DNA from: Gemmatimonas sp.
GTDB lineage: Bacteria > Gemmatimonadota > Gemmatimonadetes > Gemmatimonadales > Gemmatimonadaceae
Reading direction: 5' to 3'
Assembly (NCBI GenBank): GCA_965279375.1
Contig: OZ257156.1
Coordinates: forward strand, 1,568,001-1,632,000
DNA: 64,000 nucleotides
The position numbers and the translations under genes were made by a program. Of this stretch, positions 61,079 through 64,000 are shown piece by piece; positions within the stretch are counted from its first letter, which is position 1; the number at the start of each line of letters is the position of its first letter. The notes under the pieces are model-generated. The model was given only the letters and a program-made list of their open reading frames with translations, made no database searches and was not told where the DNA came from.

Positions 61079-61718
61079 GGAGATGCTCCGAAAGCAACGC
61101 ACGCAACTGGGCACATGCCCGTTGCACACGCATTTTGAGGGCGGACACGCCGACGCCGGTGATGGTCGCCATTTCGTCGTAACTCAATTCATCAGAGAAG
61201 CGCAGCACGATCGCTTCCCGTTGCGCCGGACCCAGCTGCGCGAGCGCATGCGCCAGTTCTGCACTGCGTTCGGCGCGTGCCAACGTCTCGCTCGTGCTGT
61301 CATGCGGGCTGTCGGACTCGGCGAGTGTCGTCGGGTCCGGGCCCTCCCACTTCATGCGCCGTGTGGCGTGCGTGCGCGCCTGATTCACCACGATGCGCAA
61401 CACCCACGCGCCAAACTTGTCGCGCTCGCGGTAGCTGCCGAGGTGACGATACGCGCGAACGAACGAGTCCTGCACCACATCCTCGGCGTCGTCGCTGTCG
61501 CCCATCAGGTGCGTGGCCACGCGCAGACAGCGGGCGTGATGTCGATCCACCAGCAACGAGAACGCCTCGGCGTCGCCCGCCAGCACGCGGCGAACGATCG
61601 CGGCGTCCGGCGGTGACGGCGGGGAATCCGGCTGCGATTCCGGCAGCGATTCCGAAGGTGTGAGCCGGTGCGGGGCCATCGCTGGCTCCGACTCCGGCGG
61701 GACATCCGACGAGGTCAT
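61071..61718 (-). CDS. ECF RNA polymerase sigma factor
   Basis: GDAEAF..LV.RH, DAEDVVQD.F, F.AW..RI..N, REAIVLR..ELSYDE.A..G..LKMRV.RA. Confidence 0.92.
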   Translation of the reverse strand: MTSSDVPPESEPAMAPHRLTPSESLPESQPDSPPSPPDAAIVRRVLAGDAEAFSLLVDRHHARCLRVATHLMGDSDDAEDVVQDSFVRAYRHLGSYRERDKFGAWVLRIVVNQARTHATRRMKWEGPDPTTLAESDSPHDSTSETLARAERSAELAHALAQLGPAQREAIVLRFSDELSYDEMATITGVGVSALKMRVQRACAQLRALLSEHLHA

Positions 61719-61913: not shown

Positions 61914-62900
61914 ATGCCAATCAAGACGTTCCGCGCGATCGGTCTGCGCCTCGCGGCGCCTCTGATGCTCACCGGCTGCGCCGCCGCCGGCTCGTCGCCC
62001 TCCGCGACGGCCTCGTCACGCACCGCGGCGCCGCAGGCTGTGGCCGTGCAGGCCATCTCACGATTGGGGGACACGCTGCGGACGTTCCCACTCTCCGCCG
62101 AGGTGCGCACGCGATACGAACGACAGCTGGCGGAGGCGCAGCGAGCCTACGAGCACACCCCCACCAACGCCGACTCCATCATCTGGTATGCTCGGCGACT
62201 CGGGTATCTCGGGCGGCTGCGCGAGTCGATCGAGGTGTACGGGCGCGGCATCGCGCTCTATCCCGACAACCCGTGGTTCTATCGGCATCGCGGGCACCGC
62301 TACATCTCCGTGCGCGACTTCGATCGTGCGATCGCTGATCTCGAGCGCGCGGCGAAGCTGGTGCAGGGGAAGCCGGACATCGTGGAGCCTGATGGACAGC
62401 CCAACGCGGCCAACACGCCGATCGGCACGCTGCACTCCAACATCGACTACCATCTCGCGCTCGCGTACTACCTCAAGGGCGAGTACGCGAAGGCGTTGCC
62501 CGTGTATCGGCGCGACATCGCGACGGCCAACAACGATGACCGACGCGTGTCCACGACGCATTGGCTGTACATGAGTCTGCGCCTGCTCAATCGGCCGGAG
62601 GAAGCGGCGCAGGCGCTCGCCCCCATCCGGCGCGACATGAACGTGATCGAGAACGGCGTCTATCATCGCCTCGTGCTGCTCTACAAGGGACAGCTCTCCC
62701 CCGATTCCGTGTTGAGCGTCGGCCCCAACGGCGAGATGTCCGTGACCGATGCCACGGCCGCGTACGGCCTCGCCAACTGGCATCTGTACAACGGACGTCG
62801 CGCGCAGGCCGAGCCGTTGCTGCGCCGCATCATTGCCGGCGGGCAGTGGGGCGCGTTCGGGTTCATCGCCGCCGAAGTGGAGCTGGCGCGCCTGCGCTGA
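61914..62900 (+). CDS. TPR-repeat lipoprotein
   Basis: Lipobox LTGC; helical repeats (YRHRGHRY..FDRAIADL.RA, YHLALAYYLKG.Y). Confidence 0.75.
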   Translation: MPIKTFRAIGLRLAAPLMLTGCAAAGSSPSATASSRTAAPQAVAVQAISRLGDTLRTFPLSAEVRTRYERQLAEAQRAYEHTPTNADSIIWYARRLGYLGRLRESIEVYGRGIALYPDNPWFYRHRGHRYISVRDFDRAIADLERAAKLVQGKPDIVEPDGQPNAANTPIGTLHSNIDYHLALAYYLKGEYAKALPVYRRDIATANNDDRRVSTTHWLYMSLRLLNRPEEAAQALAPIRRDMNVIENGVYHRLVLLYKGQLSPDSVLSVGPNGEMSVTDATAAYGLANWHLYNGRRAQAEPLLRRIIAGGQWGAFGFIAAEVELARLR

Positions 62901-62914
62901 CGTGTGCGTCGAGG

Positions 62915-63262
62915 TCAGGCGCGCTTGTAGTCCACCAGAAAGTGCATGACACCGGCGGGCGAGGAGAATTCCGTCGGTGTCGCCTGTCCGGACAGATCGT
63001 AGCAGATGCGCAGCGTGTCGCCGTCGAGCGCAAAAATGGCGGGGAAAGTCTTGCCTGCGTTCGGCCCTTCAACGCCGGTCACCGACATGGACATGGGCGA
63101 CGTGCTCGCGTCGATCGACACCGTGCCCTTGTCGATCGTTGGCCCGACCGTGACGACGTACTCGCCGCCGGTGACGGTGAGTTGCATTGCCTGGAGCACT
63201 GGTGGCGGAAACGGTTGACCGGCCATGAGAGCCGTGGTGGGGACCCAGGTACCATCGATCAT
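62915..63262 (-). CDS. TIGR03067-type domain protein
   Basis: GTW....G...ID....P....G.N.GK...IF.LDGDTLRICY....PTEF. Confidence 0.75.
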   Translation of the reverse strand: MIDGTWVPTTALMAGQPFPPPVLQAMQLTVTGGEYVVTVGPTIDKGTVSIDASTSPMSMSVTGVEGPNAGKTFPAIFALDGDTLRICYDLSGQATPTEFSSPAGVMHFLVDYKRA

Positions 63263-63427
63263 TGCGAGTGTCTCCGAGCGGATGGAGTGCGTGCCGGTGT
63301 GAGTCCGGCGGTTGGAGCATCCATGGTAGGGAACCGAGGCGGCGCGCGCGTCACCCGAATGGGTGATTCTGCGCCGTGTGCACGCCGTGCGATCAACTAT
63401 TTGACGCAGCGTCGCGACGATCATCGG

Positions 63428-63471
63428 AAAAAAGCGACCCCGGTGCCAGCTCTTGCGAGCTAACACCGGGG
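63428..63471 (-). terminator. Rho-independent terminator
   Basis: CCCCGGUGUUAGCUC-GCAA-GAGCUGGCACCGGGG followed by UCGC-UUUUUU; fully paired only on the minus strand (two G-U pairs). Confidence 0.85.
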
Positions 63472-63547
63472 ATCCGTCTCCCGGTAAGGAGAAGCTGTGC
63501 TATTTCACTGCAACTGCGCGCTTCGCTCGAAAAACAGTTCCTTCTGC
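63428..63547 (-). ncRNA. Candidate sigma54-dependent small RNA (~120 nt)
   Basis: Lies between a -24/-12 promoter and a strong terminator; several stem-loops; no credible ORF with an RBS. Confidence 0.6.
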
Positions 63548-63557
63548 GAATGCGCGT

Positions 63558-63573
63558 TGCAAGCACAATGCCA
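63558..63573 (-). promoter_or_regulatory. Sigma54 (-24/-12) promoter
   Basis: TGGCATTGTGCTTGCA matches TGGCAC-N5-TTGCW with one mismatch and exact GG-N10-GC spacing. Confidence 0.75.
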
Positions 63574-63718
63574 CGAAGTCATTTCGGGACGACCCGTAAC
63601 TGTTGAGAAATTCTTGCCGTCTTCGATCACACAAAAGGCGAGTTTTTGTCTGCACTCACGACGCATACACACGCTTATGGAAGAGCCCGCTGTGTCCATA
63701 CCCGTGCGTCCATGCATA

Positions 63719-63746
63719 CAAACTGTTGCGCGACTGAAACAGTTTG
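63719..63746. promoter_or_regulatory. Palindrome CAAACTGTT-N10-AACAGTTTG (enhancer-binding-protein site or hisIE terminator)
   Basis: Perfect 9-bp AT-rich inverted repeat ~150 bp upstream of the sigma54 site, right after the hisIE stop. Confidence 0.5.
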
Positions 63747-63751
63747 CGCAT

Positions 63752-64000
63752 TCATCGTGCGCGTGATGCAAGTACTCGACGAACATCGTCCAACGATCCA
63801 CCGACGGCGCGCAATGCGACGAGCGCGTGATAGATGAGGTCGGCAACCTCCTCGCTCGCGCGCGGCAGGTCTCCGTCGGTGCACGCCACAGCAAGCTCGA
63901 CCGCTTCCTCACCCAACTTCTTGAGTCGCAGGTTACGGTCGCCCAACAGCTTGCGTGTATAGCTCGGTCTCGAGCTCTGAAGTGAGCTGTCGTTTGCTTC
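63752..64000 (-). CDS. hisE: Phosphoribosyl-ATP pyrophosphohydrolase (3' part; probably bifunctional HisIE)
   Basis: SYTRKL..KKLGEEAVE..EEVADLIYH..V; the frame runs off the window edge. Confidence 0.9.
   Translation of the reverse strand, partial: EANDSSLQSSRPSYTRKLLGDRNLRLKKLGEEAVELAVACTDGDLPRASEEVADLIYHALVALRAVGGSLDDVRRVLASRAR

Follow-up and report, generated by a model that had tools for sequence, protein, structure and literature searches.

We examined a window of 64,000 nucleotides from Gemmatimonas sp. (genome G000, a complete assembly of 5.31 Mb, 99.95% complete by estimate) and focused on the sequence that follows hisIE. Read along the minus strand, the order is hisIE, the element described here, a TIGR03067-domain gene, a convergent TPR gene, an ECF sigma factor gene, and a gene, weakly matching the glycogen-binding end of GlgB, that probably encodes the corresponding anti-sigma factor. 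The element is present once in G000. An original prediction had proposed a sigma54-dependent, trans-acting sRNA at this site, and the sequence features that it listed were all found in place. As we now read them, in window coordinates, the features are:

63752 to 64000, minus strand: 3' end of hisIE, with the stop codon at 63754-63752; the gene runs past the window, and the full protein, which was read, has a PRA-PH Pfam match.
63719 to 63746, no strand: 9-bp inverted repeat just 3' of the hisIE stop codon (arms 63719-63727 and 63738-63746), restricted to G000.
63577 to 63583, minus strand: the one AATGACT unit that remains of the TGAC repeat found upstream in the family, shifted out of phase by 3 nt.
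63558 to 63575, minus strand: ambiguous promoter site, both sigma54-like and Pho-box-like.
63493 to 63567, minus strand: variable 5' domain, a long imperfect hairpin in G000 (minus-strand z -3.4, plus-strand z -3.1).
63519 to 63528, minus strand: motif A, GAGCGAAG(C/U)G, with one varying position in 14 homologues.
63475 to 63492, minus strand: hairpin P2, CUC(C/U) paired with GGAG, bearing the invariant motif B, ACCGGGAGACG (63485-63475).
63428 to 63471, minus strand: GC-rich 3' hairpin followed by U6, with compensatory changes; probable intrinsic terminator.

The inverted repeat also folds as a minus-strand RNA hairpin with one G-U pair in the centroid structure. The TIGR03067-domain gene (62915-63262, minus strand), preceded by a small hairpin at about 63348-63363, stands between the element and the TPR gene in G000 only, among the loci compared. 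Two coding readings were rejected. The start of an 89-residue plus-strand open reading frame behind TAAGGAG (63497-63766) is not conserved in the homologues, and an RTG in the 3' hairpin, present in 11 of the 14, is buried in the stem and its frame is not conserved.

Thirteen of 87 Gemmatimonas genomes, all of one clade, carry the element downstream of hisIE, as does one metagenome contig (L120). HisIE was detected in 81 of the 87 genomes, leaving 68 that bear hisIE and lack the element. An initial reading of 30 HisIE loci and 18 named loci found seven that bore it; G097 was added by pattern, L120 by a metagenome scan, and five more by a covariance model, all downstream of hisIE. A second covariance model returned the same 13 genomes at E<=6e-18 and everything else in the 87 genomes weakly, but it was built from the same 14 sequences and so recovers these by construction. 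The weak matches included G044 and G076; the four that were inspected, in G084, G089, G090 and G050, were unrelated hairpins. In 401 genomes of the family, a strict pattern matched once, in G000 itself. The model, which scored 22-41 candidates per genome, did not find the element in 150 family and 150 phylum genomes, since its one weak family and two weak phylum matches were a bare terminator and unrelated sequence on reading. Viral contigs gave no matches. Three metagenome matches were obtained, of which L121, a near-duplicate of G097, and L122, which is without motif A, were excluded from the counts. Rfam gave nothing above the gathering threshold at the locus (best E 0.16) and no match at E<=1 at six homologous loci, which bears out the earlier view that the element falls outside any Rfam family.

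In a HisIE tree of 42 rows the carriers form one side of a branch (support 79/88, not starred). Four-fold degenerate sites of hisIE have a mean identity of 41% among the carriers, and none of 48 columns is invariant. Against these saturated third positions, GAGCGAAG and ACCGGGAGACG are invariant in 14 of 14 homologues, although the homologues are kin and amount to about seven independent lineages.

The 15-pair GCAA hairpin at 63471-63438 stands far from shuffled sequences (z -7.6), and U6 follows at 63433-63428, 4 nt past the stem. The original prediction held that the terminator favours the minus strand, and the fold energies of both strands agree: -33.0 kcal/mol on the minus strand versus -25.7 on the plus strand, with -52.6 versus -44.3 for the 120-nt fold. 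In addition, the sense strand was the more stable in 9 of 9 homologues tested. On a consensus structure drawn by eye on a MAFFT alignment, 94.6% of cells pair and 11 cells are changed on both sides, values reached by none of 500 shuffles in a test that kinship inflates. When the structure was slid along the alignment as a control, pairing fell to 38-63%. The compensatory changes are confined to the 3' hairpin, so the conservation and covariation of stems that the original prediction had suggested looking for in relatives were found there. U-tails are weak or variable in several homologues (3-7 T per 12 nt). We conclude that the 3' hairpin and U6 are a probable intrinsic terminator.

In P2 three pairs do not vary, and a single change, from C-G to U-G, is seen in the five group-2 genomes. 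Of the two stem-loops drawn earlier ahead of the terminator, UCUCC/GGGAGA is present, at 63492-63477, whereas AACUG/CAGUU is displaced once upstream bases are included in the fold. An alternative ACCG/CGGU hairpin is broken in group-2 genomes. Taken together, the alignments and folds establish a conserved, structured, non-coding element on the minus strand. We hold with good confidence that it is a real, clade-restricted structured RNA that is probably transcribed, and its 14 candidate sequences likely constitute a new, narrow sRNA family.

The fold also bears on where such an RNA would begin. The original prediction placed the start at 63547, but the segment 63547-63476 is no more structured than shuffles (z -0.06), whereas the non-terminator part folded from 63558 gives z -3.1. 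This signal persists for starts from 63590 to 63556 and is gone by 63552. The best fold pairs the spacer and the -12 half of the sigma54-like site with 63514-63496, and a start at 63547 would cut off this long 5' stem and lose the significant fold, which makes that start unlikely. In most homologues the 5' domain is no more structured than shuffles. A27 and T31, four bases apart in an ungapped column, are invariant in 8 of 8 group-1 homologues and resemble a -10 element. The G000 hexamer CATTGT (63570-63565) aligns with this column, and the predicted start would accordingly lie near 63557. The -10-like hexamer fails in three of the five group-2 homologues, whose repeat array (see below) lies about 190-220 nt upstream. 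Predicted 5' stems cover the -10-like column in several homologues, so that the start may lie further upstream, which leaves room for an origin by read-through.

The element could thus be a structured 3' UTR and terminator of the his operon, with any sRNA processed from read-through transcripts. It always follows hisIE on the same strand, its terminator is the only one found in 62900-64000, and the long hairpin takes in the supposed promoter bases, as expected of transcription from upstream. On the other hand, the distance between the hisIE stop codon and motif A ranges over 173-396 nt, the fold of 63580-63752 is unremarkable (z -0.29), two invariant motifs are more than a terminator requires, and so many genomes of the genus do without the element after hisIE. 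An exactly phased repeat of the DNA type is conserved upstream as well. We consider an origin in the his 3' UTR quite unlikely.

This repeat, TGAC-N7-TGAC at an 11-bp period, lies upstream of the element on the transcribed strand in 13 of 13 homologues. In G000 the array is degraded, and one out-of-phase unit is left. Pho boxes are marked by an 11-bp period and a -10 spacing, and the same periodicity occurs at pho-locus promoters across the 20 genomes read. We built a Pho matrix from 39 sites at the pho loci of 20 other genomes, G000 excluded, with patterns picked after TGAC had been seen. Applied to G000, it ranks the promoters of pstC, the pho-locus TonB gene and udk-phoBR first to third and also finds DUF47-pit; the DUF47-pit and phoBR sites lie outside its training patterns. 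Upstream of the RNA, the RNA strand outscores the opposite one under this matrix in all 14 homologues, with three-unit arrays at p<=0.018 in 8 of 14. A third Pho-like unit in phase is present in 7 of 13 homologues, compared with a background of 2% per site. The G000 "sigma54" site itself also fits two Pho-like units, CGTGGCA-N4-GCTTGCA, with a marginal score (7.1, p 0.068). A reverse matrix made from the RNA's own arrays scored three of four pho sites negative and showed no intergenic enrichment (40/299), and hence the RNA's array is not a plain Pho box. G000 encodes nine strong OmpR-type matches. We conclude from sequence that an array of the OmpR/PhoB type is the conserved promoter feature and that the activator is probably of this type. 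PhoB itself (G000:C1:4561275) is the leading single candidate, a possible regulator that we put forward tentatively.

The Pho matrix also points to a candidate Gemmatimonas Pho box, a 7-nt unit CGT(G/T)(A/G)C(A/C/G) at an 11-bp period. Candidates at G000:C1:4560524, 4564420, 4567414, 4571419 and 4581424 precede udk-phoBR, a TonB receptor, a secreted protein, pstC and DUF47-pit, and further ones stand at TonB-like genes at 3227112 and 2899136.

The original prediction had read 63573-63558, TGGCATTGTGCTTGCA, as a near-consensus sigma54 promoter, and a GG-N10-GC site is indeed present in G000, about 12 nt before the proposed start. It is the sole match in the window, yet 12 of 100 shuffles also yield one; genome-wide, G000 has nine sites of this form. 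The site scores 6.5/8 (p 0.014 within its spacer) and is one of 40 intergenic sites of this kind, the majority of which face a gene, and G000 encodes RpoN and 10 strong matches to enhancer-binding activators of sigma54. Four homologues also have a strict site, 170-237 nt ahead of motif A, and 8 of 23 non-carrier genomes have one within 130 nt after the hisIE stop codon. Together with the degraded repeat array, these points favour a sigma54 polymerase that would start a 120-nt RNA at 63547 in G000, possibly from a site overlapping a sigma70-type promoter. Overlapping sigma54 and sigma70 promoters are reported for GlmY (PMC3162934).

Several observations stand against this account, beyond the loss of the 5' fold. 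The canonical proximal site is found in 1 of 14 homologues, namely G000; in four the proximal site has another base in place of the -25 G, and in five there is no site. Sites with this replacement show no intergenic enrichment (13/119, versus 10/31 for canonical sites), and in G062, G071 and G072 the proximal sites coincide with units 3-4 of the 11-bp array. The 9-bp palindrome, the candidate for an enhancer site 80-200 bp upstream, is not conserved, being absent from the 13 other homologues. We judge sigma54-driven or dual transcription from 63547 to be unlikely. A sigma54 promoter does not hold as a family feature, and the label is specific to G000 and doubtful.

Other sigma54-like sites mark this chromosomal position. 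In non-carriers (L014, L016, L024, L026, L027 and L028) the sites after hisIE precede small membrane or lipoprotein genes, and in G053, G086 and G017 (L152, L153 and L154) a gene for an acidic protein of about 135 residues, with its own GG-N10-GC, directly follows the RNA hairpin. The position after hisIE is a hot spot for differing genes.

We also considered the neighbouring ECF sigma factor, because its gene lies downstream of the element both in the window and in 12 of the 13 other loci, immediately so in G085 and G061, and its promoter likewise contains TGAC. The RNA could then be a cis-acting leader, or be driven by this sigma factor. However, the ECF gene has its own promoter past the hairpin, TGTGAC-N17-GAGTT (window 61752-61716, minus strand), which lies 6 nt before the ATG and is conserved across the genus loci read. 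The N17 spacing is not kept upstream of the RNA, and the ECF promoter was rejected as the promoter of the RNA. Of the 87 genomes, 49 have the anti-sigma gene, and ECF upstream regions read elsewhere are without the RNA. The genes downstream of the element differ between loci, with convergent genes intervening in six, which is evidence against a leader. We regard both forms of this explanation as extremely unlikely. As to the sigma factor gene itself, the sequence suggests an autoregulated, leaderless transcript with its true start at 61718. G053 has kept a decayed ECF promoter with no adjacent ECF gene.

Motif A is identical in sequence to the apex of certain G000 attC sites. Outside the window, at G000:C1:1246147-1394000, lies a chromosomal integron with an integrase and roughly one hundred attC sites, some 105 bp long, with the apex GAGCG(C/A)AGCGA; 101 attC matches of at least 45 bits were found in G000, most at 1.25-1.39 Mb and a few elsewhere. 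Sites with this apex occur in 37 of 87 genus genomes. The element might therefore derive from, or act as, an attC-like DNA hairpin, and its long hairpin does fold almost equally on both strands. The 55 nt before motif A resemble an attC 5' arm in G097 (0 of 200 shuffles) and marginally in G000 (p 0.05). Gemmatimonas attC sites and the element thus share an 11-nt apex and, in one or two homologues, 5'-arm similarity, but 12 of 14 homologues lack the arm similarity, and attC-HMM scores are at control level, G097 excepted. The symmetric AAC/GTT boxes (RYYYAAC, GTTRRRY) that mark recombination sites were not found in the element, which is single-copy and has no 3' arm, and motif B and the terminator are without attC counterparts. 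We find an attC identity or origin very unlikely.

A more elaborate history combines several of these features: an sRNA induced through PhoB on phosphate starvation and independent of Hfq and ProQ, arising from an attC apex in one clade, whose Pho array in G000 drifted into a working sigma54 promoter. What makes such drift conceivable is that both motifs have an 11-bp geometry and that few bases separate them, and we offer the combination as a long shot.

With respect to function, the original prediction proposed that an anti-Shine-Dalgarno tract blocks ribosome-binding sites. The tract does resemble the 16S 3' end of G000, but it is paired in P2 and varies among homologues (CUCC or CUCU, with loop UU, AU, AA or CU). 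Scans by duplex energy and exact seeds across about 4,250 crudely called G000 genes gave no mRNA targets beyond background and no enriched class of ribosome-binding-site targets, and the proposal is not supported in this form. Hfq, ProQ and a clear KhpA/B were not found in G000, nor was 6S RNA by Rfam. G000 does have csrA, adjoining a flagellar hook-associated-like gene. We rejected a CsrB/RsmZ-type sponge, because the single conserved GGA is paired in P2 and multiple loop GGAs are absent. By analogy with known riboregulators, we favour an Hfq-independent RNA with two invariant target-recognition modules; protein binding is also possible.

The element can be compared with three groups of known RNAs. 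Hfq-independent anti-SD sRNAs carry C/U-rich loops. Like them, the element has a C/U-rich tract resembling the 16S 3' end in a host whose genome yielded neither Hfq nor ProQ; unlike them, it holds the tract in a stem, and the tract varies. Qrr and Pxr are sigma54-dependent sRNAs. With these and with GlmY, NrsZ and CrcZ/CrcY, the element shares an intergenic position, a terminator end, structure and, in G000, a sigma54-like site upstream. It differs in having no Rfam similarity, a sigma54 site that is not conserved in the family, and a host in which Hfq was not found. The third group is the Pho-regulon sRNAs. According to PMC10294691, PhoB binds direct repeats, the pho boxes, and PhoB binding upstream of esrL was not detected in K-12. 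The upstream direct-repeat array of the element resembles such PhoB-bound boxes, a likeness to EsrL that concerns the promoter only, and the RNA's units read GATGACG, in contrast to the genus pho units CGTGACA/CGTTGCA. Within the accessible part of the open-access literature we found no sRNA family or Pho box for Gemmatimonas, and a search for motif A returned only unrelated papers.

We infer transcription of the RNA, its start and the identity of its regulator, and propose the following model. A trans-acting minus-strand sRNA of roughly 130-145 nt would start at or upstream of about 63557 and end at the U-tract at 63428. In the family, an OmpR/PhoB-type response regulator would bind two to four direct repeats at an 11-bp period and bring in sigma70 polymerase; in G000 decay of the array would have left two degenerate units, which can also be taken for a sigma54 site. 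The RNA would comprise a freely evolving 5' domain, two recognition modules (motif A, and the P2 loop with its 3' arm) and the terminator. Terminator-ended sRNAs generally act by base-pairing, and this one would most likely regulate a few mRNAs by pairing through both modules, without Hfq or ProQ. Taken as a whole, a lineage-restricted trans-acting sRNA under an OmpR/PhoB-type activator is our best explanation, and we give it about an even chance. From the original prediction of a trans-acting sigma54 sRNA, the conserved, structured, minus-strand non-coding element stands; the sigma54 site, palindrome, start and anti-SD tract do not stand as features of the family.

The narrow range of the element limits its importance. 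The derived Pho box, and the overlap of Pho repeats with the sigma54 consensus, are useful cautions for promoter prediction. Because Hfq, ProQ and a clear KhpA/B were not found in G000, a candidate family with a covariance model offers a way into the RNA regulation of a phylum that has been little studied.
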